NCBI GenBank assembly: GCA_963422645.2
Contig: CAXXVO010000013.1
Span: forward strand, 1 to 64,000
DNA: 64,000 nt
Direction: 5' to 3'
Source of the DNA: Alphaproteobacteria bacterium
GTDB taxonomy: Bacteria; Pseudomonadota; Alphaproteobacteria; UBA828
Positions within the stretch are counted from its first letter, which is position 1, and each line of letters starts with the position of its first letter. The notes under the pieces are model-generated. The model did not search any database. It was not told where the DNA came from and saw only the letters and a program-made list of their open reading frames with translations. Shown piece after piece: positions 2,219 through 39,340 of the stretch. The translations under genes were made by a program, and so were the position numbers.

Positions 2219-2432
2219 TGTTCTGATCGAGAAGTTTGGCTGAATGTACGAAGTGTCCCCTCCCACGTCATGGCCGGACTAGTTCCGGCCATCCACGTGT
2301 TGGCACGGGACTCAACGGATCTGGCTGAGCGAGATGCCCGGAACGAGTCCGGGCATGACGAGAAGATTTGCAGGGTCGGGGAGACTGCATAGCCAACCCG
2401 AAATCATGCGAACTTCAGAATCAAGACGCTAG
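2216..2432. repeat. MITE-like element with imperfect terminal inverted repeats, enclosing a REP-like palindrome
   Basis: Left TAGTGTTCTGATCGAGAAGTT vs reverse complement of the right end TAGCGTCTTGATTCTGAAGTT; begins at the TAG stop of the upstream gene. Confidence 0.5.
2266..2360. repeat. Alphaproteobacterial REP-like palindromic repeat (CGTCATGGCCGG...CCGGGCATGACG)
   Basis: Two hairpins, ATGGCCGGActagtTCCGGCCAT and ATGCCCGGAacgagTCCGGGCAT, bounded by CGTCATG/CATGACG. Confidence 0.75.
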
Positions 2433-2577
2433 AGCGCGTCCGACTTTGACGGACGCGCGACAGGCCGCGACCGCGGCCCGCCGCGTTAGCGGCGCCCTCG
2501 CGGAGGCGGCGGCCGCAGGCCGACTGCCGTGAGCGACAAGACGCGAGAGCGTTTCCGCGTAAAGCGGATACGCTCTA
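2430..2577 (+). repeat. TAGAGCG...CGCTCTA MITE-like repeat, copy 1 (148 bp)
   Basis: Aligns in reverse complement with 39194-39340; each end is a 13-bp-arm palindrome with a 7-bp spacer. Confidence 0.85.
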
Positions 2578-2630
2578 AGTGCATCCGACATTGCCGGACG
2601 CACGATAGGCCGCGACTGCGGCCCGCCGCT
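2576..2630 (+). repeat. Degenerate tandem partial copy of the same repeat
   Basis: TAAGTGCATCCGACATTGCCGGACGCACGATAGGCCGCGACTGCGGCCCGCCGC parallels 2430-2485. Confidence 0.65.
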
Positions 2631-2683
2631 CCTGCTCACCTGCAAGGCCGCCCTGTCGCAAGCGAGGGCGCGGCGGCCGAGAC

Positions 2684-3010
2684 CTACTTGTATTCGACCA
2701 GCACTTCTCGATAGGGCGTCGTGCCGACGTTCTTGGCCTTGTGGCGGGCCGGGACGCGCACCCCCTTCCCCGGCTCGGACAGGACCTCGATCTCGTCGCC
2801 GTCCACCAGCAGCGAAAAGACCCCGCCGGTCGGCACGTCGATCGTGCCCAAGTCGTTCCCGTGCTCGTCGGTCACCTGCAAGGGCGCGCCCGAGATCGCG
2901 TACCACATGTAGCTGAGCTCATGCGTGTGCATGGGCGTTTCCTCGCCCGGAGCGAGCTCGAAGTTCCAGACGGCGACCTTGTCGTTCTCGAAGACCTTCT
3001 CGGTTCCCAC
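2684..3010 (-). CDS. Small cupin domain protein
   Basis: FENDKVAVWNFELAPGEETPMHTH...H...NVG...EVLVEYK cupin pattern. Confidence 0.8.
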   Translation of the reverse strand: MGTEKVFENDKVAVWNFELAPGEETPMHTHELSYMWYAISGAPLQVTDEHGNDLGTIDVPTGGVFSLLVDGDEIEVLSEPGKGVRVPARHKAKNVGTTPYREVLVEYK

Positions 3011-3189
3011 ACCGGCCGTTGGTCAATCCTCCCCATTGAGTCAGTTCCCGCCTTAGGAGCATAGCGACTTCTGCCCGTCAAGCGGCGCCCGGCCGGTCCC
3101 CTTCGCGGTGCCCGCTCCCGCCGCCAGCGTGACACGGCAGGCATTCCCTATAGACTTCGCCGCGCGAGGGCGCAGCGGGAAGGATTGCG

Positions 3190-4113
3190 ATGAAGGCAGC
3201 CTATTTCGAGCAGCACGGCGGGCCCGAGGTCATCCGCTACGGCGACCTGCCGGACCCGGAGGCCGGGCCGGACGAGATCGTCGTCGACATCCACGCTGCC
3301 AGCGTCAACGGCGCGGACTGCAAGGTGCTGTCGGGCCGCTACAGCCGGATCGCGGCGTTTCCCTACGTGCTCGGGCGCGATTTTTCGGGCGTGGTCGCGG
3401 CGCTTGGAGACGGCGTGGACGGGTTCGCGTCGGGCGATCCGGTGTTCGGCGTCTGCGAGGTGGGGCAGGAAGGCGCCTACGCCGAGAAGATCGCGATGAA
3501 GGCGGCGCTGGTCGCGCCGAAGCCCGACCACCTCTCCCATGTGGATGCCGCGGCGCTCGCGCTGATCGGTCTCACGGCGGTGATCTCGATCGAGGACACC
3601 CTGGCCCTGCAGCCGGGCGAGAGGATCCTGATCCAGGGCGGCGCCGGCGGAGTCGCCGGTTTCGCCATCCAGCTCGCCAAACACATCGGCGCCCATGTCA
3701 CCGCGACCTGCAGCGCCCGCAACAGCGACTATGTGCGCAGCCTCGGCGCGGACGAGGTGATCGACTACAACGCGCAGGACTTCGCTGAAGCTGTCTCGGA
3801 CTGCGATGCCGTGTTCGAGACCGTGGGCGGCGACGTGGCCCGGCGCTCCTTCGCCGTGCTCAAGCCAGGAGGCCGCGCGGCATTCATCGCCTCGGGCTCG
3901 ACCGCGCCGGAGTCCCCGCGCGACGACCTGACCGCGCTCCGCCCGAGGGTCGGGCGCGACCGCCCGCACCTGCTGCGCATACTCGAGCTGGTCGAGGCGG
4001 GCGCCGTCCGGGTGCCCGAGATTCGCACCTTCCCGCTGGAGGACGCCGCGTCCGCGCTCGCCACCAGCGCCTCCCGCCATCTCAGGGGCAAGCTGGTCCT
4101 GAGCATTCGCTGA
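3190..4113 (+). CDS. NADP-dependent oxidoreductase (MDR / quinone oxidoreductase-like)
   Basis: MKAAYFEQHGGPEV, AASVN, LGRDFSGVV, GGAGGVA, GKLVL. Confidence 0.9.
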   Translation: MKAAYFEQHGGPEVIRYGDLPDPEAGPDEIVVDIHAASVNGADCKVLSGRYSRIAAFPYVLGRDFSGVVAALGDGVDGFASGDPVFGVCEVGQEGAYAEKIAMKAALVAPKPDHLSHVDAAALALIGLTAVISIEDTLALQPGERILIQGGAGGVAGFAIQLAKHIGAHVTATCSARNSDYVRSLGADEVIDYNAQDFAEAVSDCDAVFETVGGDVARRSFAVLKPGGRAAFIASGSTAPESPRDDLTALRPRVGRDRPHLLRILELVEAGAVRVPEIRTFPLEDAASALATSASRHLRGKLVLSIR

Positions 4114-4245
4114 TATCCCTTTCCCGGGGCTCGATGATGTCCCTCTCGCGAGGGGCCCTATCGAGAGCAGGCAAGCGGAGGCGTTCGAGGACGGAAGGCA
4201 AGGGCGGAGGGCGGTCGCCCCGCCCTTCGAACGACGATCCGGGCG

Positions 4246-4980
4246 TCACTCTCGATTGCGCCGCCAGGACTCGAATGCGGCAAGCGTCGCCTCGTTTGGC
4301 GGATAGGTGCCGGGCACGGGCACGGGCGCGCCGTCCCGGACTCGCTCGACGATGAACTCCTCCATCAGCTCCTGCTCGCCCGCGCCGTGGGCCACGTCGT
4401 CGGCGATGCCGCGCGGAATGACGCACACACCGTCCGGATCCCCGACCAGCACGTCGCCGGGAAACACCGCGACCCCGCCGCAGGCGATCGGATCCTGCAC
4501 GGCGGCGGCGAAATGGGCGGCCAGGCTGGCGGGCGCGGCACTGCCGGTACAGTAGGTCGGAAACGCGATGGCGGCGACCGCCGCCGCATCGCGCATCGGG
4601 CCGTCGGCGACGAACGCCGCGACGCCGCGGACCTTGAGCCGGGTGATCAGGATGTCGCCCAGGGCACCGGCGCCCTGCTCTCCACGGCAGTCGCAGACCA
4701 GCACCTGGCCGGGCGGGCAGGCCTCGATGGCCTTGCGCTGAGGGTATTCCGGATCGGCCAGAACCTCGGGCGTGCAGAGGTCTTCCCGCATGGGAATGGT
4801 GCGCAGCGTGTAGGCCTCGGCCGCAAAGCGTGCGTGCTGCGGATTCAAGGGGCGGGAGCCCTGGATGAAGGCGTGGCGCAGACCGCGCTTGAGCAGCTGC
4901 ATGGTGACCGTGGCGACGCTCACGGCGCGCAATCGTTCCAGGGTCTCGTCGGCCAGCGGCCTCTCCGATGTCGTTGGCAT
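4246..4980 (-). CDS. RraA family protein (HMG/CHA aldolase-like)
   Basis: GALGDIL, DGPMRD, GGVAVFPGDVLVGDPDGVCVIP. Confidence 0.88.
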   Translation of the reverse strand: MPTTSERPLADETLERLRAVSVATVTMQLLKRGLRHAFIQGSRPLNPQHARFAAEAYTLRTIPMREDLCTPEVLADPEYPQRKAIEACPPGQVLVCDCRGEQGAGALGDILITRLKVRGVAAFVADGPMRDAAAVAAIAFPTYCTGSAAPASLAAHFAAAVQDPIACGGVAVFPGDVLVGDPDGVCVIPRGIADDVAHGAGEQELMEEFIVERVRDGAPVPVPGTYPPNEATLAAFESWRRNRE

Positions 4981-5134
4981 GCGCTTGCCTTGCCTTCCTG
5001 GATGGCCGACCGGCATTACCCGTGTCGAGCGCCCCTTCGGGGCAGATCATATTGCGGAATTGCTATTCAATGGCACGCTGTGCCGGTGCGAACCAGAGCG
5101 CCCGCTTGAACGGATGAGCGTGGAGACATAGAGC

Positions 5135-5563
5135 ATGCCCCTGCAAAACCTCAATCACTTCCTCGTGCTGACCAGGGATCTCGGAGCGACCCGCGACTTC
5201 TACGTCGATATCCTGGGTCTCGAGGATGGCTACCGGCCGCCCTTCGCGTTCGACGGCCACTGGATTTATCTGGGTGACCGCGCGGTGATCCACGTGGCCG
5301 AACTCGGGGACTATCTGAAGAGGCGCGATCGCGCGCACGACGCCTCCGAAGACGGCACCACCGGCTCGATCGATCACATCGCGTTCGAGGCCACCGGGCT
5401 CAAGGACATGATCGCGACGCTGGAGAAACACGGCATCGTCGCCAGCCATCGCAAGGTGCCCGACCTCGACCTGCACCAGGTCTTCGTCATCGACCCGAAC
5501 GGCATTCGTATCGAGCTGAACTACCCCGCCCTCGAGGGGGCGGCGGTGGACGCCTCCGAATAG
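5135..5563 (+). CDS. VOC / glyoxalase family protein
   Basis: LNHF...FYVDILGL, RPPFAFDGHW, IDHIAF, DPNGIRIELN. Confidence 0.9.
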   Translation: MPLQNLNHFLVLTRDLGATRDFYVDILGLEDGYRPPFAFDGHWIYLGDRAVIHVAELGDYLKRRDRAHDASEDGTTGSIDHIAFEATGLKDMIATLEKHGIVASHRKVPDLDLHQVFVIDPNGIRIELNYPALEGAAVDASE

Positions 5564-5606
5564 CCGGCCAAGCGCGGTTTGCTAAGGGCGGCAGCCCCTT
5601 CAGTCC

Positions 5607-5991
5607 CTAGACGACCACCGCAGCACCGCTTTCCGCGGGTCCCACATTGCTTCGGAAGGTGGCGAAGAGCTCGCGCCCGATGCCGCTGGCATTGGCGGAG
5701 AGATCGGCCTGGGCCGGCGTGCGCGCTGCGAACGCCGCCGGATCGACAAGCACGTCGAGCCGGCCCGCCGCGGCGTCGAGCCGGAGCATATCGCCGTCGC
5801 GCACCTGCGCGATCGCCCCGCCCGCCGCGGCCTCGGGCGTGACATGGATGGCCGCCGGCACCTTGCCCGACGCGCCGGACATGCGCCCGTCGGTGACCAG
5901 CGCCACGCGGAAGCCCTGGTCCTGCAGGGAACCCAGGACCGGCGTCAGCGCGTGCAGCTCGGGCATGCCGTTGGCCTGGGGGCCCTGGAAG
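5607..5991 (-). pseudogene. edd: Phosphogluconate dehydratase, C-terminal fragment; 5' part removed at the IS21 end
   Basis: [17 protein letters not shown]...[26 protein letters not shown] is the Edd C-terminus; it abuts the IS21 IR at 5992. Confidence 0.9.
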
Positions 5992-6110
5992 TGTTGTTAA
6001 GCGTGGAAAAGTGACCCCCTATTGGGGGTGATCGGCGTCCAAAATTGACCCCCTTGGATTTGTGTCCATGAACACACCTCGTCGTTTGGACGGACGGGGT
6101 GGTGGGGGAG

Positions 6111-15583: not shown

Positions 15584-16729
15584 ATGGACACAGAGAGCAC
15601 GACGATTCATCCCGACGACGCAGCCGAATGGCGCGCACGCAACGTGCCAGTCTTCAACGAGAATCGCTTCAAGCTCGGCGTGTTCGGGCAGAACTGCTCC
15701 AACGGCTGCACGATCACGCACGCCGAGACGACATTCGAGCCCACCTACGAGCACAGTGTGAAGATCAGCCAGCTTGCCGACCGCCTCGGCTTCGAGCTCC
15801 TGGTCCCGGTCGGGCGGTGGCGGCATTTCGGGGGGTCGACGCAATTCAACGGTAACAATCTGGAAGTCTACACCTGGGCCGCCGCGATGGCCTGCCACAC
15901 GAGCGACATCATGGTCTTCGCCACCTCGCACGTGCCCACGGTGCATCCCATTCTTGCCGCCAAGCAGGCGGCGACCATCGACAACATTTCGAGCGGGCGC
16001 TTCGGCCTCAACGTCGTCTGCGGCTGGTTCAAGCCCGAGATCGAGATGTTCGGCATGGACCAGCTCGACCACGACGAGCGCTACGTCATGGCCGACGAAT
16101 GGCTCTCAATCGTGAAGCGGCTCTGGGCCGAGGACGACTTCGACCACGAAGGCGCCTACTACAGGGTCAACCAGGGATTTCTGGCGCCGAAGCCGATCCA
16201 GCGGCCGCACCCGGTGGTGATCAACGCGGGCTCCTCGCCCGCCGGCCGCGAATTCTCCGCGAAGCTCGCCGATTTCAACTTCCTCTCGATCACGACGACG
16301 GAGAAGGCGGAGGAGATCGTGAAGGACATCCACGCCCGCGCCGCGAACCACGGTCGCCGCTGCGGCGTGATGAGCTACGGCCTCGTCTGCTGCCGCGATA
16401 CGGAAGAGGAAGCCCAGGCACTCTACCGGCGCATCGTGGACGAGGGCGACTGGGGCGCGACGAACACGATCATCGAGCTCATGCTGGGCGAGAACTATTC
16501 CTACGGCTCGAACAAGGAAGAGCTTCGCGCCATGGGCGAGCGCTTCATCGCCGGTTGGGGCGGCTACCCGCTGGTCGGCACGCCTGAGCAGGTGGTCGAC
16601 AAGATGCTCGCCATCGCCGACATCGGCGTCGAGGGGTTCATCCTCTCGTGGCTCGACTATTACGAGGAGCTGAAGTACTTCGGCGAGAAGGTGATGCCGT
16701 TGATGCGGCAAGCGGGGCTGCGCGTGTAG
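15584..16729 (+). CDS. LLM class flavin-dependent monooxygenase
   Basis: FKLGVFGQN, PVGRW, AKQAATIDNISSGRFGLNVVCGW, NAGSSPAGREF, PLVGTPEQV. Confidence 0.93.
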   Translation: MDTESTTIHPDDAAEWRARNVPVFNENRFKLGVFGQNCSNGCTITHAETTFEPTYEHSVKISQLADRLGFELLVPVGRWRHFGGSTQFNGNNLEVYTWAAAMACHTSDIMVFATSHVPTVHPILAAKQAATIDNISSGRFGLNVVCGWFKPEIEMFGMDQLDHDERYVMADEWLSIVKRLWAEDDFDHEGAYYRVNQGFLAPKPIQRPHPVVINAGSSPAGREFSAKLADFNFLSITTTEKAEEIVKDIHARAANHGRRCGVMSYGLVCCRDTEEEAQALYRRIVDEGDWGATNTIIELMLGENYSYGSNKEELRAMGERFIAGWGGYPLVGTPEQVVDKMLAIADIGVEGFILSWLDYYEELKYFGEKVMPLMRQAGLRV

Positions 16730-16862
16730 ATCGTTTCCGCTTCACACGGAAACACGCACCTTCGGTGCTAAGTAGCTGATTCGATTGCGATGGTCTTCCG
16801 TTTCTATTGCCACCGGGCGCGGAATTCAAGCCGGTTCCGCACCCCGCTGCAACAGATCGGAG
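16727..16862 (+). repeat. Integrase-leader / element-end repeat, copy A
   Basis: Near-identical in reverse complement to 23478-23613; starts with TAGATCGTTTCCG-N7-CGGAAAC. Confidence 0.85.
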
Positions 16863-16939
16863 TGTCAATCGGCATTCAATATTGACCCCCCTGAGTGGCA
16901 CGGCGGCGGTTGGCCCACCGGGGCAACCGGGCCGCAGGG
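16863..16939 (-). mobile_element. Isolated, internally deleted right end of the IS21 seen at 5992-8541
   Basis: TGTCAATCGGCATTCAATATTGACCCCCCTGAGTGGCACGGCGG matches the reverse complement of 8475-8541; TTGGCCCACCGGGGCAACCGGGCCGCA matches 8358-8384. Confidence 0.85.
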
Positions 16940-17109
16940 CAATGGCATTCATTTGGCGCGAAGATTGTTCCGGGGTTTTTTTGGTGGTGTCGTAACGAGT
17001 TGATTTCTTGTGTGGATTGTCGGTCTCGGCGTTTCCCGCACGAGGGGGATTGACCGGCGGCGTGTGCTTTGGCACACTGTGGCTGTCCCCCTGTCAGTGG
17101 AGCCGGCCC

Positions 17110-17827
17110 ATGGACCCCCGCATCACCGCGCTGAAGTCGACGACCTTTTTCGGCAGACGTCTGACCCGCCGGCAGATTGCCGACATCCAGGAGACGGTGG
17201 CGCTGTTTCCGGCGATCAGCCGCAACGAGCTCGGGCACACGATCTGCGAGCATTTGAACTGGCGCGCGCCGAGCGGGCGGAACCGTGTCGCGGTCTGCCT
17301 GCGGATGCTGGAGGAGTTGGAGCGGCTGGGCATCCTGACCCTGCCGGCGCGGGACGAGGCGCAGGTGCGGGGGCCGCAGGAGGCGATGGCCCGGAGCGAG
17401 CGGACGGCGCCGGCCGCGGCGATCGCGGAGGACCTGGCCGCGCTGATGCCGCTGCGCCTGTCGATTGCGGCGGGCAAGGAGGAGGGCGGGCTGTGGAACG
17501 AGTTCGTCGCGCGCCACCACTATCTCGGGCTGCATCGTCTGGTCGGCGCGCATCTGCGCTATTTTCTCCTGGACCGCCACGGGCGGCCTCTGGGCTGCCT
17601 TCTGTTTGCCCGGGCGTCGCGCACGCTGCCCTGCCGCGACGAGTGGATCGGGTGGCCGGCGGAAGGCTTCCGCAAGCACCTCGATCTGGTCGTGGGTCAC
17701 ACGCGTTTCCTGATCTTTCCCTGGGTCCGGGTCGACAACCTGGCGTCGAAAGCGCTGTCGATGGCGCTGCGCCAGCTGCCCGGCGACTGGGAGGCGCGCT
17801 TCGGAGCGCGCCCGGTTCTGGTGGAGA
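17110..17827 (+). pseudogene. DUF4338-IS4-type transposase fusion, 5' part
   Basis: SRNELGHTICEHLNW, HHYLG, RDEWIGW, RFLIFPW, NLASKALS; interrupted at PVLVE|TFVD. Putative left IR CAATGGCATTCATTT at 16940. Confidence 0.8.
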
Positions 17828-18016
17828 TGAAGGCTTCATAATGCTTCTCCGTTGTGCAGGTGGGCGGGCGTTTCTACCGCATTGATAGAAAAGGCGGTTT
17901 GGATTCCGTTGTTGCCGCCGCGGCGACCTTTACATCGTGCCGGACGTGATTTTCCAGTATCGCACGTTGGAGGTGCGGATCTGCATCGGGCGTTTTGCCT
18001 GACGGTCCGGGCATGG

Positions 18017-20197
18017 TCACCCCCCATCACCGTTGAGCCCGCGCAGCAGCGGCAGTTCGTCCTCGACCGGCAAACGCACATACAGTCCGCGCGTCTTGCC
18101 GCGGGTCACATGGCAGCTGTCCAGCCTGCCCGCCTTGATCCGTTCCCAGACCGTCTGCCGCGTGACACCCAGACGATCCATTGCCACAGCGAGGGGAACA
18201 AACCCCTCCGGAGGCGCCTCACGAAAGCGCTCGCGCAAGGTCGGGGTCATCCGGATCCGAAGAGGAGCACCTTCGATATCGGGCTGGGCAACCGGAACCA
18301 GCCCCTCGCGGATCCAGCGATAGATGGTGTCATCCGAGACTCCGATCTCCTTCGCCACATCGGCAACGCCCATGAGCACCGGCTCGTCCCCGTCGGGCTG
18401 GTAGGGCGCAATGCCATGGCGGCGACGCAGGCTGCCAACAAGCTCGGCCGTGAAATCCAGACCCCGTGCTGTGCGCCGTCCCTGGCGGGTGAGAACCTTC
18501 GCGGTCTCCCGGTCGTTGTAAAAGCATGACAGCTTGCGCACGAGCTCGACCGTGCTGCGCTCATCGCGCCGGGGTGTCGGAGAGCCCGCGAGCATCGGCA
18601 AAGTGATCTCGTCGATCTGCCCGCCACGCCAGCGCAATGTTGCCATGATCTCACGCTCCTGTCGCGCAAGCTCGATCGTCACCTCGTCGAGGAGGCAGGC
18701 GAGCAGGCGCTTGCGCTCGCGCATGGTCGTCGACGACGCCCCCCAGACCTGCGACAGGCGCGCGCCGAGACCCTCGAAAACCGCCGGGGCAGGGGCCGCG
18801 GGCTGACGCGCCCGTGCCGCCTCAAGCGCTTCCTGTGCAGCCTTCTCGGCGCGAAGCGCCTTCTCCCACTCGCGCTCCAGCGTTGCCGCAATCAGACGGT
18901 TGTCGGGATCGACCTGCTTGTAGCGCCGCTCGGCAAGCCGCGCCTCGTACCGGCAGTGCTCAAGATCCAGCTCCCAACGGCGCAACGCGCGCAGGCCGCG
19001 TTCAGCAACATCACAAGCCGCCTGCCGGGCCGCCTCCACCCCCGCCGGCGTGACCGCATCGAGAAACAGACGGGCAACTTCCGCATCAACGCGCTTGCCG
19101 CCTGTCGACCAACAACCGCCGCGCCGGCGCGCAGCATCGCGCTTGCGGCACTCATACCCCCAGCCCGTCTTGCTGTAGTAGACGGTCATCGGCAATCCGC
19201 AGCCGCCGCAGACCGCGAGACCCTGGAGCAGAGCCGACCCTTCCCGCGCCGCGCCGCGGGCTCCGTCCGGAGCCATGTGGTTGCGGGCCAGCTGCTCCTG
19301 TACTTCAAGCCATTCTGCCCAACTGACATATCCCTCATGCTTCTCCGGCTGAAGAATATCCCAGCGCTCCTGGACCGGCCGCAGCGGCGCACCGTGACCA
19401 ACGCCGCGTTTGAAGCCGTAGGCATAGGCGCCGCCCATCGCCGGGTTGGTGAGGATGCGGTACACCCGTTCATAGCGCGCCGGGCCCCATTCCAATGCTG
19501 CCCCCGGGTGCCGGCGAGAGGGAACATCCTCGCCCGCCTCACGCAGCAGCATCGTCGCCTGGCGGGCCGAACCGGCTTGCCGAAAACGCGCAAAGACCGT
19601 TGCAATCGCCGCCTGAACCCGGGCATCCGGATCCTTCCGCAAAGTCGAGCCATCCCGCACAAATCCGATCGGAACGCGCGAGTACAACTCGCCACGAAGC
19701 GCCTTGTTCCGCTTTCCGCCCTCCATCCGGGCGCGAATAAGAGACAGCTCAGCGGCGCTCACGGTTCCCTTGATCCCCAGGACAAGGGAGTCGTCGTCCC
19801 GGCTCGGGCAGTAGATGTGGCAGTCCTCAACCAGAACCGTGTCGTGCCTGCGACATAGATCGAGAAGCTGAAACCATTCCATCGTGTTCCTGGCGAGCCG
19901 CGAAACCTCAATCCCGAAGATGCCCCCGACATGGTCCCGGGCGATCAGGTCGCACATCTCCCGAAAGCCGCCACGCTCGCCGCGCGCCTTCTCGCTTGCG
20001 CTCTCGCCAAGATCGGCGTCGATCGTCCGTATCCGCTCGGCCGGCCAGCCAATCTCCCGGGCACGCTCGCCAAGCGCGTATTGGCGCAGCTGCGATTCCT
20101 GGTGCGCGTTCACTTGCAAGGGTGTCGACTGGCGAACGTAGACAACTGCAAGACGCTCAAGATGACGCTGGGTGATCTTCGACGGATCGACCGTCAT
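18017..20197 (-). CDS. Large serine recombinase (resolvase, recombinase, Zn ribbon, coiled coil, C-terminal HTHs)
   Basis: VVYVRQST catalytic Ser, DLGES, EVSRLARN, LLQGLAVCGGCG, VDPDNRLIAATLE. Confidence 0.95.
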   Translation of the reverse strand: MTVDPSKITQRHLERLAVVYVRQSTPLQVNAHQESQLRQYALGERAREIGWPAERIRTIDADLGESASEKARGERGGFREMCDLIARDHVGGIFGIEVSRLARNTMEWFQLLDLCRRHDTVLVEDCHIYCPSRDDDSLVLGIKGTVSAAELSLIRARMEGGKRNKALRGELYSRVPIGFVRDGSTLRKDPDARVQAAIATVFARFRQAGSARQATMLLREAGEDVPSRRHPGAALEWGPARYERVYRILTNPAMGGAYAYGFKRGVGHGAPLRPVQERWDILQPEKHEGYVSWAEWLEVQEQLARNHMAPDGARGAAREGSALLQGLAVCGGCGLPMTVYYSKTGWGYECRKRDAARRRGGCWSTGGKRVDAEVARLFLDAVTPAGVEAARQAACDVAERGLRALRRWELDLEHCRYEARLAERRYKQVDPDNRLIAATLEREWEKALRAEKAAQEALEAARARQPAAPAPAVFEGLGARLSQVWGASSTTMRERKRLLACLLDEVTIELARQEREIMATLRWRGGQIDEITLPMLAGSPTPRRDERSTVELVRKLSCFYNDRETAKVLTRQGRRTARGLDFTAELVGSLRRRHGIAPYQPDGDEPVLMGVADVAKEIGVSDDTIYRWIREGLVPVAQPDIEGAPLRIRMTPTLRERFREAPPEGFVPLAVAMDRLGVTRQTVWERIKAGRLDSCHVTRGKTRGLYVRLPVEDELPLLRGLNGDGG

Positions 20198-20348
20198 CGG
20201 CCGCCTCCCGATCCGCAATCCGAACCATCAGATCGGCCAGACCCTGCACGACGCGATCCCGGTCCGGAGCCGGAAACGCCAGCCACCGGTCCCGGCGCTC
20301 CTCCCACTCCATCAGCGCGATCAGCGCCAACTCCTGCTCCGCATCCAT
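20157..20348 (-). CDS. Small hypothetical protein upstream of the recombinase
   Basis: Helical ORF ...WLAFPAPDRDRVVQGLADLMVRIA; overlaps other ORFs, so uncertain. Confidence 0.4.
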   Translation of the reverse strand: MDAEQELALIALMEWEERRDRWLAFPAPDRDRVVQGLADLMVRIADREAADDGRSVEDHPASS

Positions 20349-20625
20349 CGCGCCTGAGTTCCCTCTCATCAAGGTCATTCAGAAGATTAAGGAGGGTGAG
20401 GAAATCAGACAACTCTCCGATCAGGCGTGGTGCATCCTCGGGACGGGCTCCAAGGCTCGTCCATGCCGCTGGTATCCAACAACAGCTGCCGTCCGGCATC
20501 CGAACCTTCAGAGTCCGGCCCCCGTAACCTCCTTTGCGCCGATCGAGAATCTCGATCGCCTCACCGTCGAAAGGATGCTTGTAGCGTCGAATGCGAACGG
20601 GCTCAGGAGCCTCGGAAGCCTGCAA
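20194..20625 (-). CDS. Accessory protein of the recombinase element (DUF5372-like)
   Basis: VRIRRYKHPFDGE...PDGSCCWIPAAWTSL; stop overlaps the recombinase ATG (ATGA); start codon uncertain. Confidence 0.55.
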   Translation of the reverse strand: MQASEAPEPVRIRRYKHPFDGEAIEILDRRKGGYGGRTLKVRMPDGSCCWIPAAWTSLGARPEDAPRLIGELSDFLTLLNLLNDLDERELRRDGCGAGVGADRADGVGGAPGPVAGVSGSGPGSRRAGSGRSDGSDCGSGGGR

Positions 20626-20652
20626 GATAGTAGTCTGTGACGTTCGTGGAGA

Positions 20653-21135
20653 CCTTCGTGGACCCCAGCCTCTTCGACGGCGCCTGCTACCGCGCGGCCA
20701 ACTGGCGCTGTCTCGGCGAGACCGGGGGCGGCAAGGGCAAGACCCGCAAAAGCGTCTACGTCTACCCGCTGACGCCGGACTTCCGCTCGATCCTGCTCGA
20801 AGGCCCGCGGCCGGCGCGGCGCGGGAACAGGACACGGCCGGCAGCGCTGGCGCCGGACGATCCCTTCGTGGCGCTGTGGCAGGACCTGATCGGCGCACTG
20901 GCGGCGGTGGCCGCCGATCACGACCGGGTGTGGCAGAGCCGCCGGCGGGTCCTCGACACCCTTCTCGTCATGCTCTTCATCTTCCGGCTGGCGTTCTCGA
21001 ACGGCCGCGCGGGCTACGCCACGACGCTGGCCGGGCTGTGGGAGCAGTGCCGGGTCCTGGGCGTCGCACTGCCGCAGCCGGCGCCGGTCTCGGCCTCGGC
21101 GATGTGCATGGCGCGGGCCAAGGTCGACGAGGCGG
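20653..21135 (+). pseudogene. DUF4338-IS4 fusion, 3' part, truncated before the DDE domain
   Basis: TFVDPSLFDGACYRAANWRCLGET...VYVYPL, then WQSRRRVLDTLLVMLFIFRL...SAMCMARAK. Confidence 0.8.
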
Positions 21136-21920
21136 TGAGCGCGCGCGCTTCCACAGCATCCAGAACCTGGTCCGCAACCGTGCGCCCGAAGCGCGCCAGC
21201 CAGGCCCGCGGCATCGCATCGTTGTTCCGGATTGTCCCCACGGCCTCGCCGTCGACGATCATCGCGCGTATCGGATTGCTCAGGGTGAGCGTCAGGGTTT
21301 CGCCGTCGTCGTCATGCGCGTCGTCGAGTACCGGCACCGAAATGGTCTTCGACGTCTCACCGCGCTCGAAGATGAGCGTCCCGCTCGTCGCCGTGTAGTC
21401 CGAGCCCGCCGTCGCCGTGCCGTCCGACGTCGCATAGTCCACCTTGACCCGGTAGGGCGCTGTCCCGCTCAGCGTCACGACAAATGCAAGCGCGGCGCCC
21501 GGCCCTTCCTCGACCTCGGCGTCCGCCACCGTGACGTCGTGATCCGGCCCCGGCACGGTAATGGATGCCGCGGTGGAGAGCGGCGTGCCATCATCCGCCG
21601 TGCAGATCGCTCCATGCTCGCTGCAGTCCTGTATGGCCGCCAGGGACAATGACAGCGGCTGCTGCGATGTCGGCGTCACCCTGATCGCCCACAGGTCCTT
21701 GCGCCGTTCGCCGCCGCTTCCCTTGACGCGCCACACCTTGTCAACGGCACCGCCGGTCACCGACAGGGCGTAGTCGCGGAAGTACCTCGCGTTGATGGTC
21801 ACGGGGTCGCTGAATTTCACGCGGACCGTGAACTTCCTGCCGTCTCCGGAGTGGCCGGGCGGAAATTTGACCCATTCGGCCGTCAATTTCGGCCCGGTGG
21901 GCGGTTTCTTCCGTTTCACA
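21135..21920 (-). pseudogene. Internal fragment of a Calx-beta surface protein
   Basis: VTVADAEVEEG...VDYATSDGTATAGSDY...VPVLDDAHDDDGETLTLTLSN; MPRAWLARFGRTVADQV. Confidence 0.85.
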
Positions 21921-23426
21921 GCCTGCGGCTGCCAAGGCCCAGTCCCCGCGCCTGGCCCAGGGTCCGGGACGCCCTCATCCGCCAACGCGCTATCGGCACC
22001 GACGTGCTCGAAGCCTGCCACGGCCGAGGCCTCCTCTACGCCGATGACAGGATCAACGCCGTCTTCATCTGCCGAAACGCCAGCGGGCACACGACCGGCG
22101 CCGAGATCCTCGGCACCGCGCCGCAGCCCGGAACAAAACGCTTCAGGGGCATGGCCCCGGGATCGCGCAAGGCGCGTGGCGGCTTCTGGCTCCACTGCGA
22201 CCGAAACCAGCCCGCCCTCGTCATCCTCACCGAGAGCGCCGTCGACGCCATCTCTGCACGAAGCCTGCGCGTCGAGGGGACGCGCGAGAACGGCGCCGTC
22301 GTCGCCTCAACCGCCGGCATCGCCAGCTCGGTCCCGCCCTGGATCAAGGAGTGGAAGCCACGTCGCATCGTCTGTGCCTACGACGCAGACAGCGCCGGCG
22401 ACACTGCCGCCGAGCATCTCGTGCTCAACGATCCAAGGGTGAAAAGGTTGCGCCCACGACACGCCAAGGACTGGAACGAGATGCTCCTGCGGTCTCGATG
22501 AAAGCCAGGCCACTCACCGCTCTCGCAGATCAACCAAGCGCCGCATCACGAACATCAAATAATCCGAAAACCGCACCATCAAATGCTGGGCGCACGCTCA
22601 ACCCTGGAACGGGGCGCTCTTCCGCCGCCACCTCGAAGGCCGGTCCGACGCCGACTGGCCCGCGGCCGTGCTCGGAGGCCCGGTGCGCGGCGCCATCGGC
22701 GCACGCTCCCGAACCGTCCGCCTCTCCGCAGAAACCGCCGCAAAGCAGGCCAGGCGACACCCCGATCTCGAACCCGCAGACTACGCCCGCCTCCAGCGCA
22801 TCCTCGATCAAGGGGAGATGTTCGTGGAGGACAACGGCCGTTTCGCGCAGGGCTTCCTCGAAGAGGACGGGCGCCTGTGGAAGGCCGTCGTCAAGTCGGC
22901 CGCAGGTGGCGACGAGGCCTACATCGTGAGCCTGCACAGGTCGAAGGCCGCTGACCTCGATGTCACAAGGCGACGCTTCGGGCCGATCAGGAGGGATGGG
23001 AAGTGAGGCGCCGGGCGGGTCGCAAACCCCGCGCTCGCCCGAAGGCATGAGAGGACTGCTGCTTCCGACGCCACGCTCACCCTACGCGCCGCCGCACGCC
23101 ATCTCAAGCCGATTCAGCGCCCCGGCGCGGGCCGCCGCCAGCCTCGCGGGACGGGCGCCACGCACCGGATTTTCCAGCCGAATCCGATACCCCGAAACCG
23201 ACCCGATTTGCCGCCGTCGCAAGACCCCTGAAACGCCCCGAAAATTGCCGTTTCCAGCCAATTCACGGCCTCTGCACGGCCCGATTCGCAAAGACTTCCG
23301 TCCGCACGCCAGCCGCCGCACCGCCACCGTGCCGCCGCGCATCCCCTTGAGATTCCGCCACCTTCCGCCCGATTCCGCCTGATTCCACCCCTTGACCCGA
23401 TTCACAACGACTTTCGTCCGTCTACA
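21921..23426 (+). mobile_element. Partial inverted copy of the 56507-63015 element (3' Toprim gene, internal end, MuF C-terminus, outer end)
   Basis: 21921-22600 = reverse complement of 57667-58346; 22601-23426 = reverse complement of 56507-57332. Confidence 0.95.
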
Positions 23427-23467
23427 AGGGCGTCGACCCGGCGCTGGGTGAGGCGGATGGGTGGCAT
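23427..23467 (-). pseudogene. First ~14 codons of an Arm-domain tyrosine integrase, cut by the transposon end
   Basis: MPPIRLTQRRVDAL after a GGAG RBS; similar to MPTLRLVERRILAL at 35083. Confidence 0.55.
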
Positions 23468-23477
23468 GATCGCACGT

Positions 23478-23613
23478 CTCCGATCTGTTGCAGCGGGGTG
23501 CGGAACGGGCTTGCATTCCGCGCCCGGTGGCAATAGAAACGGAAGACCATCGCAATCAAATCAGCCACTTAGCACCGAAGGTGCGTGTTTCCGTGCAAGA
23601 CGGAATCGCTCTA
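23478..23613 (-). repeat. Integrase-leader / element-end repeat, copy B
   Basis: Inverted near-identical copy of 16727-16862. Confidence 0.85.
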
Positions 23614-29453: not shown

Positions 29454-29457
29454 CATG

Positions 29458-31743: not shown

Positions 31744-31756
31744 GCGAGTCAGCCGC

Positions 31757-33471: not shown

Positions 33472-33564
33472 ACGCGCGCGGCCGTCGGCCGGAAACGGCT
33501 GGACGGATCGCCTAATTGCTGGCTTGCTTCGCTTCGGCTCTCGACAACGAAGAGGACACATCCC

Positions 33565-34896: not shown

Positions 34897-35082
34897 CGCG
34901 GTGACCGACCTCACCGGCTCGCGGCAGTCCCAACGACAACCCTCTCCCCCTGTGTACGCCTCTAAGTGCATCGTCGATGCTAATACACTGAAGTAGCGGT
35001 TCTATTTCCTCTTGTTGGGCCGAAAGATGCGGAATCGGTCCGCGTTTTCTCTCCGGCTGCAACAAATCGCAGGAGGAATTTC

Positions 35083-35320
35083 ATGCCAACGCTTCGCCTC
35101 GTCGAACGCCGTATCCTCGCGCTTAAGCCTCGCAAGTCTGCCTGCGACATCCGCGGCCGCGAGACTCCGCCGGCTGGGCGAGGTGCCGGCACGCCATGAG
35201 CCCGATCAGCCACAGGTCGTGGCGATCATACGCCGACACTTGCTCACCGGATGCCGCAAGAGCGAGATTGTAACCTCAAAGACGTATGCTCAACGTATGC
35301 TCAACCTTGCGAGAAGACAT
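35083..35320 (+). pseudogene. Internally deleted tyrosine integrase remnant
   Basis: MPTLRLVERRILALKPRK (Arm-type start, AGGAGG RBS), LLTGCRKSEI (box I), degenerate RYAHLA-like coding near 35295. Confidence 0.7.
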
Positions 35321-35383
35321 CGGCGGACGAGTCGCATGACCACCAATGTGCCCGAATGAATCGCTCCTAGTCAGCGGCATCGG

Positions 35384-36028
35384 ATGACCCTCTCATATAC
35401 GTCAGGCGAGAAGATCGCGGACACGGCGGTCCATGCGGTCGGCATCGCTGCAAGCATCGCGGGACTGACGATGCTGGTGATCGTCGGAAGCCGCTACGCC
35501 GGCGCCCTCCCCGTCACGACCTATGCGATCTACGGCGGCTCGGTGCTCCTGATGATCACCATCTCGGGCCTCTACCATTGGATCACCCACGCGCCGGTCA
35601 AGTCTGTGTTCCGCGTGATGGATCACTGCGCGATCTACTTGCTCATTGCCGGTACATACACTCCGGTGACGCTGCTCAGCATACGAGGAGCCTGGGGCTG
35701 GACTCTGTTCGGCGTCGTATGGGGTATCGCCATCGCCGGCGTACTGGTGAAGACGCTTCTCGTCGGCCGCTTCGAGCGCTTGTCCATCGGCCTCTACGTT
35801 CTGCTCGGCTGGGTCGGCCTGATCGGCCTGGGCCCGTTGATTGAGCATCTCTCATGGCCCGCCCTTGCGCTATTCGGCAGCGGCGGCTTGCTGTTCAGTG
35901 TCGGAGTACTGGTATTTTATAGGTGGCACAGGCTTCCCTATCACAATCTCCTCTGGCATCTCTTTGTCCTGGCGGGCGCGATGACGCACTACTTTGCGAT
36001 CATCTATTTTGTGCACCCCGTGATCTGA
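35384..36028 (+). CDS. Hemolysin III (PAQR/TrhA) family membrane protein
   Basis: SGLYH, DHCAIYLLIAGTYTP, YHNLLWHLFVLAG. Confidence 0.93.
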   Translation: MTLSYTSGEKIADTAVHAVGIAASIAGLTMLVIVGSRYAGALPVTTYAIYGGSVLLMITISGLYHWITHAPVKSVFRVMDHCAIYLLIAGTYTPVTLLSIRGAWGWTLFGVVWGIAIAGVLVKTLLVGRFERLSIGLYVLLGWVGLIGLGPLIEHLSWPALALFGSGGLLFSVGVLVFYRWHRLPYHNLLWHLFVLAGAMTHYFAIIYFVHPVI

Positions 36029-36062
36029 ATGCTGGTGCGCGGAATACCTCTAATCCCTCAAC

Positions 36063-36090
36063 TGAGGTGGCCCCGGAAAATCGGACAGGT
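36063..36090 (+). mobile_element. Isolated IS3 terminal inverted repeat
   Basis: TGAGGTGGCCCCGGAAAATCGGACAGGT identical to the reverse complement of 13440-13467. Confidence 0.85.
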
Positions 36091-36134
36091 CGCTCAGGAG
36101 TATTCCACCCTCTGACGGCGTGGGCGCGGGCGGA

Positions 36135-37838
36135 TCATGGCGACAGGCGCATCCCGTCGGCGATCTTCTCGGCGATGGCGATTGTCGTGAGGTTCGTGTT
36201 GGCGCGCGGGATGGTCGGCATCACCGACGCATCCACGACCCTGAGGCCCTGTACGCCGCGTACGCGGCATTCGCCGTCGAGCACCGCCAGCGGGTCGGCG
36301 TCCGGGCCCATGCGGCAGGTTCCGCACACGTGCCAGCCGGGCCAGACGGCGCTCTTGATCCAGTCCGCAAGCGCGCTCTCGTCCTTGACCAGGCGATGTA
36401 CATCCCGGCCGCCGGTGAGCTTGCGCCTGAGCAGTATCCGGCCCGGCCCGCCGAGATCGAGAAGCGTGCGTGCTGCGGCGGTCTTCAGCCATGTCCCCGC
36501 CGAAGGCACCATCAACCGGCGGACGGCGTCCGAGTAGCCTGCGAGGAACCACATCGTCACCTGATCCCGGACGGCGCCGGATTCCATGATGGCGTAGAGG
36601 CGGCGGAAGCCGTCGACCAGGCGCACGAGATCGCGCTCGTCCGAGAGCATGTTGAGATCGACGCGTGGCTCGTCGTGCGGCGAGGGCGTGTGAAGGCGCA
36701 CCGTGCCCCGCGAGTAGGACTTGTTGACCGCCAGGAGCATCGTGCCCATCGCCTGGCCGAGCGGATGCCAGCCCGCGGAGTTGGTCGGCATCAAGAGCAT
36801 GTCCCCCGGCGAGCATCCCTGCAGACCGGAGGAAAAACGCGCGCCGAAATAGATGTGGCGGCGCTGCCCGGCAGGCACGCGCGCGCCCGGCTTGAGATGG
36901 GCCGCGGCGCTGACGCTCGCGTGCTCCAGGAGATTGCTGCCGACGCCGGGCAGGTCGGCCACGACCTCGATGCCGTGCGAGCGCAGGTGCTCCGCCGGGC
37001 CGATACCCGCGCGGAGAAGGAGGGCCGGCGAATGAAGCGCGCCGGCGGAGATGATCGTCTCCCGCGCGTCGAAACGGACAGTCTTCCCGTCCCTCACCGC
37101 TTCGACCCCCCGCGCCAGCCCGTCCTCGACGAGGATTCGGGTCACCAGGGTCTCGGCGTGAATGGCAAGATTGCGGCGGCGGCGCGTTGCGGCGTCGAGA
37201 TAGCCGATCGCCGTGGAGACCCGGCGGCCGTACTGGTTGGAGAGCGGAACCGGATAGCAGCCGTCGGCGTCGTCGCCGTTAACATCCTGGGCGAGGGGAA
37301 GGCCGCCCTCCTGCATGGCGGCGAGCGCGGCGCGGCTGAACCCGCCCCAGTCCTTGGGAAACAGGCGGCGCACCGGGATGCGCCCGGCGCTGCCATGGCC
37401 CTCGCCGCTGAAATCCTGATCCCGTTCCAGCTTGTTGAGGTAAGGGAGGAGCCCCGCATGGGACCAGCCCTTGAGCCCCATCTCTTCCCACTCGTCGTAG
37501 TCGCCCTTCATCCCGCGCACGGCGAACTGGCCGTTGATGGACGAGCCGCCGCCCATGACGCGGGCCTGCTCGAAGCGGCTCGGCTTCACGGAAGGATCGG
37601 TTTCGGGCGAGCGGTTGTAGACGCGGAGCTCCGGCCAGTGAAAACGCGGATCGAAGTAGGCGCGCCCCGGATAGCTGTCGAGGATGATGTCGGGCACCTG
37701 CTCGGGCGGCGTGTCGGGCCCCGCTTCGAGAAGGGCCACACGCTTCGCGGGGTCGGCGGAAAGGCGGTGGGCCAGCACCGCGCCCGCCGAGCCGCCGCCC
37801 ACGATGATGGTGTCGAATGCTTCGCCCACTTGCCGCAC
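36135..37838 (-). CDS. GMC family oxidoreductase (choline dehydrogenase-like)
   Basis: GGGSAG, LLEAG, MGGGSSING, GVGSNL, HVCGTCRMG, VVDASVMP, NTN. Confidence 0.93.
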   Translation of the reverse strand: MRQVGEAFDTIIVGGGSAGAVLAHRLSADPAKRVALLEAGPDTPPEQVPDIILDSYPGRAYFDPRFHWPELRVYNRSPETDPSVKPSRFEQARVMGGGSSINGQFAVRGMKGDYDEWEEMGLKGWSHAGLLPYLNKLERDQDFSGEGHGSAGRIPVRRLFPKDWGGFSRAALAAMQEGGLPLAQDVNGDDADGCYPVPLSNQYGRRVSTAIGYLDAATRRRRNLAIHAETLVTRILVEDGLARGVEAVRDGKTVRFDARETIISAGALHSPALLLRAGIGPAEHLRSHGIEVVADLPGVGSNLLEHASVSAAAHLKPGARVPAGQRRHIYFGARFSSGLQGCSPGDMLLMPTNSAGWHPLGQAMGTMLLAVNKSYSRGTVRLHTPSPHDEPRVDLNMLSDERDLVRLVDGFRRLYAIMESGAVRDQVTMWFLAGYSDAVRRLMVPSAGTWLKTAAARTLLDLGGPGRILLRRKLTGGRDVHRLVKDESALADWIKSAVWPGWHVCGTCRMGPDADPLAVLDGECRVRGVQGLRVVDASVMPTIPRANTNLTTIAIAEKIADGMRLSP

Positions 37839-37947
37839 TCCGAAAACACCCTGGCGGCGCGCCCGACGTCACGTCGAAACGGACCGCGCCATCGGGCTAG
37901 TGTAACGTTCGGCGTGCGCCGTCAAGGTCGTTCACGGCAGGAATTTC

Positions 37948-39213
37948 ATGGCAGCACGAAGAGTCGCGGTCATCGGTGCCGGCGTTGTCGGAACCGTCGC
38001 CGCGTGTTTCCTGAAACGCGAGGGCCACGAGGTCACGCTCTACGACCGTGACGCGCCGGGCTCCGGCGCCTCCTTCGGCAACTCCGGGGTGATATCGCCC
38101 GCCGCCGTGATGCCCGTGGCGACGCCGGGTCTCCTCAGGAAGGTTCCCCGCTGGCTGCTCGACGAGACCGGCCCGCTCTATCTCGATTGGCGCGAGCTGC
38201 CGCGCCTCGTGCCCTGGCTCATCGCCTTCCTGCGCGCGGGCCGCGAAGACAGGGTGCGGGCGATTTCGGCAGCTCTGGCGACACTCAACGGCCCGACTCT
38301 CGATCTGCTCATGCCGCTCCTACACGAAGCCGGCCTCGATGCGCTGGTCCAAAGGAAGGGCATGCTCTACGTCGACCCGATCGGGCAGGAGGGCGTTCGC
38401 GAGAGCCTCTCCGTCTCGCTGCAGCGGGCGGCGGGATACAGGGTCGAGGAGCTCGACGCCGGCGGCCTCCGGGATCTGGAGCCGGCGCTGGCGCCGGGGT
38501 TCGCTTCAGGTGTCTATGTGCCGGCGGCTGCGCATACCGTCGACCCGCACCGCCTCGTCACCGGACTGGCCGAGCATTTCGAGCGCCAAGGCGGGGCGTT
38601 TACACGCGGGCGCGTCGACCGCATCGTGGCGAGGGCCAGAGATCGCGCCGCGGTCGATGTCGGCGGCGAAATCCGCGACTACGACGCCGTCGTCGTGGCC
38701 GCGGGCGTCTGGTCCAAGCCGCTGGTTGCGGGGCTTGGCTATCGCGTTCCTCTCGTGGCGCAGCGCGGCTACCACGTGACCTTCACCAACCCCGGTGTCG
38801 TTCTCAGCAGGGTGGTCCTGCCGGTGGCACTGCCTGCCACCATCGTACCCATGGCGATGGGTATCCGGATCGGCGGCACCGTGGAGTTCGCGCGGGAGAA
38901 CCGGCCCGCCAACCAGAGGCGCGCAGACGCGCTCTGCCGCCACGCCAAGACGACACTTCCCGCGCTTCGCATCGACGAGCGCACGACCTGGATGGGCGAG
39001 CGGCCATGCACGCCGGACAGCCTGCCCGTGCTCGGCCGGGCGCCGCGCCATCCGGCGGTCCTGTTCGCCTTCGGCCATGGGCACCAGGGGGTCATCGGCG
39101 CCGCGAAGACCGCCGAGGTGATTGCCGATCTCGTCGCGGAGCGGGCGCCGAGCCTCGATCTCGCGCCCTTCGATGTGGGGCGGTTCAGGCTGCTAGAGCG
39201 CGTCCGTCGTTGA
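37948..39213 (+). CDS. FAD-dependent oxidoreductase, D-amino acid dehydrogenase (DadA) family
   Basis: GAGVVG, ASFGNSG, RGYH, GGTVEF, WMGERP..PDSLP, FGHGH. Confidence 0.9.
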   Translation: MAARRVAVIGAGVVGTVAACFLKREGHEVTLYDRDAPGSGASFGNSGVISPAAVMPVATPGLLRKVPRWLLDETGPLYLDWRELPRLVPWLIAFLRAGREDRVRAISAALATLNGPTLDLLMPLLHEAGLDALVQRKGMLYVDPIGQEGVRESLSVSLQRAAGYRVEELDAGGLRDLEPALAPGFASGVYVPAAAHTVDPHRLVTGLAEHFERQGGAFTRGRVDRIVARARDRAAVDVGGEIRDYDAVVVAAGVWSKPLVAGLGYRVPLVAQRGYHVTFTNPGVVLSRVVLPVALPATIVPMAMGIRIGGTVEFARENRPANQRRADALCRHAKTTLPALRIDERTTWMGERPCTPDSLPVLGRAPRHPAVLFAFGHGHQGVIGAAKTAEVIADLVAERAPSLDLAPFDVGRFRLLERVRR

Positions 39214-39340
39214 CGAAAACGCTCCAGCATTTTGTCGCTCACGGCAGCCGGCCTCCGGCCGGCGCCTCCGCGAGGGCGCCGCAGGGCGGCGGGCCGCAGT
39301 CGCGGCCTGTCGCGCGTCCGTCAAAGACGGACGCGCTCTA
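39194..39340 (-). repeat. TAGAGCG...CGCTCTA MITE-like repeat, copy 2 (147 bp)
   Basis: Reverse-complement match to 2430-2577; overlaps the stop codons of both convergent genes. Confidence 0.85.

Follow-up and report, generated by a model that had tools for sequence, protein, structure and literature searches.

RUP of Streptococcus pneumoniae is a miniature inverted-repeat transposable element (MITE) derived from the IS630 family of insertion sequences (IS) and attributed to IS630-Spn1. The Correia or NEMIS elements of Neisseria are small, TA-duplicating inverted-repeat elements near genes, whose ends they sometimes alter, and we know of no transposase assigned to them. Short chromosomal repeats can also be landing sites for other mobile elements: dRS3 repeats of Neisseria are the integration sites of Nf/MDA filamentous prophages, and REP/BIME palindromes are targets of IS1397 and ISKpn1, the incoming elements in these cases using IS110-type or IS3-type transposases. 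Here we examine a family of hairpin-forming palindromes, and the 148-bp repeat and integrase genes that they accompany, in a window comprising the first 64 kb of contig C14 (CAXXVO010000013.1, positions 1 to 64,000, assembly GCA_963422645.2) of an uncultured alphaproteobacterium. This genome, hereafter G000 (5.9 Mb, 67% G+C, 23 contigs), is 99.6% complete with 8.5% contamination, and close relatives are present in sequencing runs labelled sponge metagenome. The window content is ordinary metabolic and transport genes, broken up by insertion sequences and integrase remnants.

An earlier note on this DNA had read the palindromes as tyrosine-recombinase core sites and the ~148-bp repeats between them as att-like substrates or derivatives of an integrase-encoding element. 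Its observations proved real in part, and its interpretation as a whole is partly supported. We consider it very probable that two mobile elements meet at the palindromes, namely an IS630-type MITE and genomic islands with tandem integrase genes that insert in the hairpin at the MITE's right end. The evidence comprises a TA duplication at the repeat, the similarity of its ends to those of an IS630-family element, MITEs split around three islands, and a core sequence directly repeated at the island ends.

The repeat is like RUP-type MITEs in its length (~100-150 bp), non-coding nature, many copies, IS630-like terminal repeats and insertion at TA with duplication, and unlike them in that each end is a hairpin (with a 7-nt gap), the interior is a chain of GC-rich hairpins, and the distribution is nearly confined to one uncultured alphaproteobacterial genus. 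It is like the Correia elements in being a small, TA-duplicating inverted-repeat element near genes that sometimes alters gene ends, but here a candidate partner IS occurs in the same genome. As with dRS3 and REP/BIME, one mobile element lands in a short repeat present in many chromosomal copies. In contrast to those cases, the repeat is here a transposon end, and what lands in it are islands of 25-47 kb that carry a tandem pair of Arm-type tyrosine integrases and lambda-like arm sites. Genomic islands with adjacent tyrosine recombinase genes have been described as GInts, which need three integrases and a fourth small gene, and the excision of such multi-integrase islands yields attachment-site variants that shift target choice (PMC5385486). 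The islands reported here share with GInts the adjacent integrase genes at one island end, imperfect flanking direct repeats and attachment-site variants able to shift the target, but have two integrases rather than three plus a small gene.

The 148-bp element and its TA target sites

Two full-length copies of the repeat are present in the window, bounded by site pairs as the earlier note had seen. The first (2430..2577, plus strand, left to right end) matches positions 1-148 of the nhmmer model (E 2.3e-40), was aligned with 30 other full copies, and has the layout TA, GAGCGCGTCCG-ACTTTGA-CGGACGCGC, a GC-rich core of three hairpins, GAGCGTTTCCG-CGTAAAG-CGGATACGCTC, TA; as single-stranded DNA it is predicted to form a chain of hairpins (z = -4.89). 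It is adjoined by a third, partial copy (2578..2635, plus strand; nhmmer model 4-61, E 1.3e-08, and blastn) made up of the left-end hairpin and the first inner hairpin, the terminal TA being common to both. The second full-length copy (39194..39340, minus strand; nhmmer 1-148) has the opposite orientation and lies between convergent genes, as identified from open reading frames and Pfam. At one terminus CTA (39338-39340) is the stop codon of a minus-strand hydantoinase B gene, while at the other a FAD-oxidoreductase gene (37948-39213, plus strand) runs into the repeat and ends in the hairpin loop, its last residues being repeat-encoded.

A profile built from the 31 aligned full copies gave 77 nhmmer hits in G000, 38 of them full length, with the left end present in 65 and the right end in 46. 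The order throughout the family is TA, GAGCGCGTCCG-N7-CGGACGCGC (left hairpin), three short GC-rich hairpins, GAGCGTTTCCG-N7-CGGAAACGCTC (right hairpin), TA. Eleven of the 13 bases are shared by the outer arms, TAGAGCGCGTCCG and TAGAGCGTTTCCG, and the flanks of the 31 copies diverge immediately beyond TAGAGC...GCTCTA. With terminal inverted repeats, a length of 148 bp, no coding capacity and many copies, the repeat has the features of a MITE. It was found in 18 of the 20 other genomes of the genus. Elsewhere in the family it was present in one of the 23 genomes that represent other genera, and in a second, neighbouring family in three of five. A comparison with Rfam returned no match at gathering score in the window, and chance-level matches only (E >= 1.4) over 2380-2700.

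Comparison of filled and empty sites indicates how the element inserts. At 39194-39340, five relatives (L016-L020) have a single TA where the window has TA-element-TA; the filled allele reads GC-TA-element-TA-CCGCGCC, and the TA is part of the hydantoinase B stop codon. The same TA received an independent MITE insertion in the other orientation at locus L014, and the orthologous locus L015 holds a 33-nt solo hairpin. A core-gene stop codon next to C16:59766 is a second TA hot spot, where G008 and G032 have the MITE and G005 and others do not, and at a third locus the MITE is present in G003 and the site empty in G000, in agreement with TA duplication. Empty-site tests from 14 relatives' MITE loci yielded six with both flanks on one G000 contig, of which one was clean, two represented the same site with two nearby TAs, and three were ambiguous. 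The 148-bp repeat is a MITE that inserts at TA and duplicates it, and it is bounded by this duplication only, not by recombination cores. The earlier note had itself named TA duplications attributable to IS5/IS630 transposases as an outcome contrary to its proposal, and a TA duplication is what the filled and empty alleles display. A long GC3-rich frame (rich in G+C at third codon positions) stops at the terminal TAG in 38 of 106 MITE termini, against 50 of 457 random TAGs, an overlap that fits a TA-seeking element since TA is rare outside stop codons in this genome.

Ten matches to DDE_3, the IS630-family transposase domain, were found in G000. An IS whose transposase scored 126 bits spans 1051 bp (C5:130594-131644), is bounded by TAGAGCATATCCG ... 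CGGATATGCTCTA, and consists of a helix-turn-helix frame and a DDE frame that overlap with a frame shift at an A-run; further copies lie on C21 (96.6% identical) and C3 (a fragment). The IS end 3' of the transposase stop, TAGAGCATATCCG-TTTTAGA-CGGAAC, has the same hairpin layout as the MITE right end and is identical to it at 11/13 and 22/27 bases, hairpin included. Twelve of 21 genomes of the genus have the element, G009 in 21 full-length copies, and the five of these that were viewed were all 1051 bp long, TA-flanked and set in different flanks. The G009 copies are 92-93% identical to the G000 copy, suggesting a recent burst in G009 only.

The similarity of the ends suggests that the MITE is moved in trans by the transposase of this 1051-bp IS630-family element. 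In the favoured explanation the MITE encodes no protein and is of the cut-and-paste type. Its terminal inverted repeats, 11-13 bp long (TA followed by GAGCGYKTCCG), each form a hairpin together with an inverted copy 7 nt on. Insertion takes place at a TA, often that of a stop codon, with duplication of the TA, and the IS630-family transposase would act on the element through the common ends. The plain TA duplication at the empty sites and the match of the ends to the IS (22/27) run counter to the earlier proposal that the repeats are mobilised by a recombinase or derived from an integrase element.

As short, GC-rich, intergenic sequences in many copies and both orientations, the repeats might also be taken for REP/REPIN-type palindromes spread by a RAYT (Y1) transposase. 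This is exceedingly improbable, because G000, at 99.6% completeness, gave no match to Y1_Tnp (PF01797) in a search for which control genomes were positive, and because TA duplication and terminal inverted repeats are not features of REP sequences.

The palindromes themselves were quoted correctly in the earlier note at 2430, 2545, 2576, 16727, 23613 (minus), 39194 and 39308, and seven of its eight sites are members of one family. The eighth, a weaker site at 34963, falls outside it, being the small inverted repeat GCATCG-TC-GATGC, the counterpart of GCACC-TTC-GGTGC in the integrase leader. Taken by itself, the motif TCCG-N7-CGGA does not significantly exceed chance (6 matches where 3.54 ± 1.75 are expected, with 15 of 100 shuffles reaching 6). 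The 27-nt pattern GAGCGNNTCCG-N7-CGGANNCGC, allowing up to three mismatches and counting palindromic sites on both strands, gave 20 matches against 7.24 ± 2.78, a number that none of 100 shuffles reached. A palindrome at 46047-46073 (two mismatches) was rejected as a member, as it lies inside a coding frame and is without TAGAGC.

The earlier note described conserved arms around a variable spacer of constant length. Across the genome, GCGNNTCCG-Nk-CGGANNCGC occurs with N6 18 times, N7 58 times, N8 twice, N9 and N12 once each, and N3-5 and N10-11 not at all; because 17 of those with N6 come from an unrelated repeat, GCGGTTCCG-GGGGTG-CGGATTCGC, with a single N6 family member remaining, the 7-nt spacer is almost fixed in length. 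The rest of the description holds for the right-end hairpin, which is palindromic over 12-13 bp and to whose loop strong variability, far above that of the arms, is confined. It does not extend to the left-end hairpin, which is palindromic over 9 bp only, the outer TAGA and inner GACA being unpaired, and whose loop shows fair conservation (20 of 61 copies have TCTTTGA). One left-arm position covaries, with C-G in 44 copies and A-T in 7.

Other repeats occur alongside the MITE. Three repeats form a mosaic in the intergenic region 2219-2683, where a ~215-nt repeat (2216-2434) that includes the hairpin CCCGGAACGAGTCCGGG adjoins the MITE upstream; it has one further copy at C14:122452-122622 and many in relatives. 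The unrelated palindromic family with the 6-nt spacer, ...TAAATCGG-GCGGTTCCG-GGGGTG-CGGATTCGC-CGG.AAATC..., has 17 copies, on contigs C4, C6, C7, C8, C9, C13, C15, C18 and C22, and none in the window.

Tandem-integrase islands and their attachment sites

In relatives, the conserved block measures 2.4 kb and holds a leader, intA (375 aa) and intB (~390 aa), beyond which the cargo differs by locus. IntA and IntB each match Arm-DNA-bind_3, Phage_int_SAM_3 / Phage_int_M (SAM-like/central) and Phage_integrase. In G008 (25 kb), G017 (46.7 kb) and G032 (28.3 kb), the pattern of a left attachment site (attL) has a partner of the right type (attR) on its own contig and strand. In these three genomes attR reads ...GGAYGACCATCGCATA...TTGTTTTCT, then ACACGGAAAC, then GCTCTG...TCGCTCACGGCAGCC..., and continues through the MITE left hairpin into unique flank. 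Each island splits a MITE, in such a way that the left side keeps the outer arm, the loop and CGGAAAC while the right side has a duplicated ACACGGAAAC and the remainder of the MITE. At the site orthologous to the G008 island, G000 has neither MITE nor island.

The 10-bp core ACACGGAAAC is present at both ends of all three islands, with one mismatch in G008. It consists of the last three loop bases and the first seven inner-arm bases, and is accordingly asymmetric and off-centre from the 7-nt spacer in 3/3 closed islands; a crossover in the spacer between 13-bp arms, as the earlier note envisaged, does not agree with these junctions. The note's view of the repeats as att-like substrates stands for one end of the element, the right-end hairpin being the attachment target with three complete islands inside it, whereas at the left-end hairpin no island junction was observed. 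Judged by these junctions, the hairpin is a target, not a product, of the integrase elements.

If the palindromes were instead simple tyrosine-recombinase sites, a 7-bp overlap lying between their arms, and if the integrases mobilised the 148-bp repeats as non-autonomous elements, one could account for a geometry that recalls loxP, FRT or dif sites (inverted 9-13-bp arms around a 6-8-bp spacer), for the hairpin directly before the integrase genes in 6/6 G000 copies, and for the arm covariation (C-G in 44 copies, A-T in 7). That account is nevertheless very unlikely. The repeats are flanked by a duplicated TA and not by a common core, their ends match an IS630-family element, the island core lies asymmetrically in the hairpin, the left-end hairpin is never joined to an integrase, and most MITE copies have no integrase nearby (77 hits against six leaders). 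Unlike loxP, FRT and dif, moreover, the system has an off-centre core, a single hairpin type in use, and arm-binding (lambda/P4-like) integrases with long attP arms. Its islands have what characterises the lambda/P4 type, namely arm-binding and catalytic domains and a core directly repeated at both ends, and in G014 present once in the empty site.

This last island (38 kb) lies in a non-palindromic target and has an 11-bp core, the direct repeat ACACGTGCTCA. Its left junction is ...CCCACACGTGCTCA followed by CGCACC and its right junction ...AGTTTTCT, ACACGTGCTCA and GTGCGCC in succession; the corresponding empty attachment site (attB) is C13:18849 in G000, which carries CCCACACGTGCTCAGTGCGCC once. 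The junctions are those expected of a classical integration in a non-palindromic site. The 20-nt leader motif CTGATTCGATTGCGATGGTC recurs inverted near the right ends of the islands in G008, G014, G017 and G032, and these occurrences are putative arm-type sites.

Among 14 leader copies viewed (four from G000 and ten from relatives), ten begin with the hairpin and the other four are in different sequence, with ACACG-N5-ACGCACC common to all four. IntA is ~86-91% identical in the three hairpin-less loci with a full gene, which have non-palindromic sites and other cores. ACAC(C/G)-N5-6-CGCACC is retained, and the hairpin absent, in paralogues whose integrases are ~60% identical, and leaders from other named assemblies have ACAC in the 14 nt before CGCACC in 16 of 18 cases. 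Three cores, differing in the 5-6 nt after ACACG, occur among leaders >90% identical in DNA, which suggests that the overlap is inherited from the previous target.

Two further explanations bear on these leaders. The MITE could be real and its overlap with the islands come only from a shared preference for gene ends, the hairpin not being a preferred attB; near-identical integrases do use several cores after ACACG, and the ACAC before CGCACC in the 16 of 18 leaders is kept regardless of the surrounding sequence. We regard this as unlikely, given that 10 of the 14 junctions (4 of the 14 being G000's own) fall at one position of one 33-nt sequence in different genomic places, and that four more right-hand junctions in G000 fall at that same position. 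Alternatively, the hairpin before the integrase could be the island's own end, its likeness to the MITE due to common descent or chance, in keeping with a homology that starts exactly at TAGAGC, with differing upstream flanks, in 6/6 G000 copies and 6/10 copies of relatives. Such an origin is highly improbable, since the rest of the same MITE lies at the opposite island end in 3/3 closed cases, four of the 14 leaders have no hairpin and stand in other sequence (IntA ~86-91% identical in the three with a full gene), and the GATC variant and loop at 16727 match the half left at C16 (see below).

According to the favoured explanation, of two elements meeting at the palindromes, the 2.4-kb module at the left end of an island comprises a 110-nt P' arm with a putative arm-type site, followed by intA and intB, and the islands integrate site-specifically at a 10-11-bp core starting ACACG, with IntA and IntB as the probable catalysts. 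The right-end hairpin, which holds ACACGGAAAC, serves repeatedly as attB. Once an island is in place, its integrase leader is preceded by the outer arm, loop and CGGAAAC, as at 16727 and 23613, and what is left of the MITE lies at the other island end; the attP junction of the excised circle would be TTGTTTTCT, ACACGGAAAC, ACGCACCTTCGG.

Integrase remnants in the window and the 16727 junction

In the window, an attL junction consisting of a MITE right-end part lies at 16727..16753 (plus strand; outer arm 16727-16739, loop 16740-16746, first seven inner-arm bases 16747-16753), with the core ACACGGAAAC at 16744-16753 and the TAG at 16727-16729 serving as stop codon of a luciferase-like monooxygenase gene. 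The P' arm, or leader, of a tandem-integrase island follows at 16754..16862 (plus strand), recognised from repeats and the leader alignment, with a putative arm-type site CTGATTCGATTGCGATGGTC; it ends at an inverted copy of an IS21-family end (16863-16939). A second attL junction (23587..23613, minus strand; outer arm 23613-23601, loop 23600-23594, CGGAAAC 23593-23587) is followed by the P' arm and first intA codons (23428..23586, minus strand, ATG 23467), the gene being cut at 23427 by the IS at 21921-23427. The third feature of this kind (34950..35359, plus strand) is the leader and N-terminal fragment (ATG 35083) of a paralogous integrase, without MITE hairpin or Pfam hit and followed by a HlyIII gene. 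The earlier note had single sites beginning the leaders of Arm-type integrases; this holds for 23613 and the start at 23467, but the leader of 35083 has no palindrome, and that at 16727 is cut by an IS at 16862 and reaches no integrase start.

The 136 nt beginning at 16727, and inverted at 23613, have six copies in the genome, each with a different upstream flank. All six read TAGAGCGTTTCCG-(T/C)TTCACA-CGGAAAC, then ACGCACCTTCGGTGCTAAG... toward the integrase start, and the association of palindrome and integrase noticed earlier is beyond chance, as 6/6 copies of this integrase leader in the genome begin with the hairpin. Foreign DNA also adjoins four further MITEs of G000 that break off at the same point of the hairpin (C7:142071, C8:515095, C11:7706 and C5:20747), the last having the loop variant ACGCGGAAAC.

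The junction at 16727 can be followed beyond the window. In the closest relatives the luciferase-like gene ends gcgcgtgTAG and an enoyl-CoA hydratase gene comes directly after. In G000 the flank on the enoyl-CoA hydratase side is on another contig, where at C16:59586-59766 it is joined via TA to a complete MITE whose far hairpin, TAGAGCGTTTCCG-CTTCACA-CGGAAACGATCTA, adjoins a core-gene stop codon; in G005 that core gene is 119 kb away, and the flanks of the luciferase site are adjacent with no MITE between them. The window side of the split hairpin reads TAGATCGTTTCCG-CTTCACA-CGGAAAC, joined to ACGCACC. A rare GATC arm variant is split between window 16727 and C16, and the CTTCACA loop is the same in both. 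The arrangement would be explained by one reciprocal exchange, within a 22-nt shared segment, between an occupied hairpin and a MITE at the luciferase site.

The junction is not an assembly artefact: in two runs from two studies, X1 and X18 (one of which may be the source sample), assembled contigs bridge 16670/16450 to 16770 without difference. The empty allele at 16727 is found in assembled contigs of X18, X19 and X2. This evidence, drawn from assembled contigs only, bears on the existence of the junction and of the empty allele and says nothing on abundance.

Several other features accompany the integrase remnants. Between the two facing junctions, 16863-23427 contains the IS21-type end, a DruA-like frame (17008-17841), a large serine recombinase (18017-20218, minus strand), a Calx-beta protein and a Toprim/DUF3991 frame, and looks like scrambled remains of island cargo. 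The segments 21921-23427 and 56506-58346 are inverted copies of one insertion sequence, 99-100% identical, the latter with 332 extra bp (57335-57666) and the former truncating intA at 23427. Elsewhere in G000, integrase genes of this kind are mostly overlapping tandem pairs, with at least 10 on C3, C5, C6, C8, C9, C10, C13 and C16, while one relative's locus (L091) has three in a row. Another end motif, GTAACTGCCCAGGT(C/T), from islands of a more distant integrase family (~37-38% identical), also adjoins MITE right-end hairpins in several places; it was seen at C7:142071, on C15 (reverse-strand index 267633), on C8 near 21726 and at the integrase leaders C3:9212, C3:13878 and C9:498182. At C12:4205 a paralogous integrase leader adjoins the 5' end, not the 3' end, of an opposite-strand tRNA-like sequence, as read by eye.

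Weight of the evidence and implications

A number of points weigh against the favoured explanation. For the MITE, the three ambiguous comparisons among the six empty sites involved diverged flanks, ~100 unmatched bases at the site and a 653-base gap. The other IS end matches the MITE left end less well (10/13 and 18/27), and as the IS630 partner is identified by end similarity (22/27) and the shared TA duplication, another member of the IS630 family could be the mobiliser. For the islands, three of the hairpin type and one other were closed. A motif search found the right ends of 10 islands nowhere within 20 kb, although a genus-wide pattern search later located three island right ends further away than that. 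G011 does not fit simply, its flanks being 257 kb apart and its right junction lacking the MITE remainder. All six integrase copies with this leader in G000 are dead, through IS cuts after 107 to ~510 nt, replacement by unrelated sequence, or a stop (C3), and nothing is active here. Finally, all genomes compared are metagenome-assembled, and the contamination of G000 is 8.5%.

A broader proposal, to which we give slightly less than an even chance, is that these islands have come to land mainly in a MITE that is lineage-specific and derived from IS630. Each copy with a right loop ending in ACA would make a new attB, recombination between occupied and empty hairpins would rearrange the chromosome (e.g. 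16727 to C16:59586), and the overlap would be taken over from the previous target, as coupling sequences are. A literature search, limited in depth, retrieved no description of this repeat or of an island targeting a MITE.

For annotation, the MITE accounts for the frequency with which genes of the genus run into, or stop inside, a repeat. The interpretation of the repeats as recombinase-moved is corrected, and in its place stands a two-layer picture of mobile elements in uncultured, sponge-associated alphaproteobacteria. If confirmed, this would show in nature how one mobile element can broaden the targets open to another, would offer a possible cause of many rearrangements and synteny breaks at these repeats, and would yield integrases whose core is short, definable and apparently flexible.

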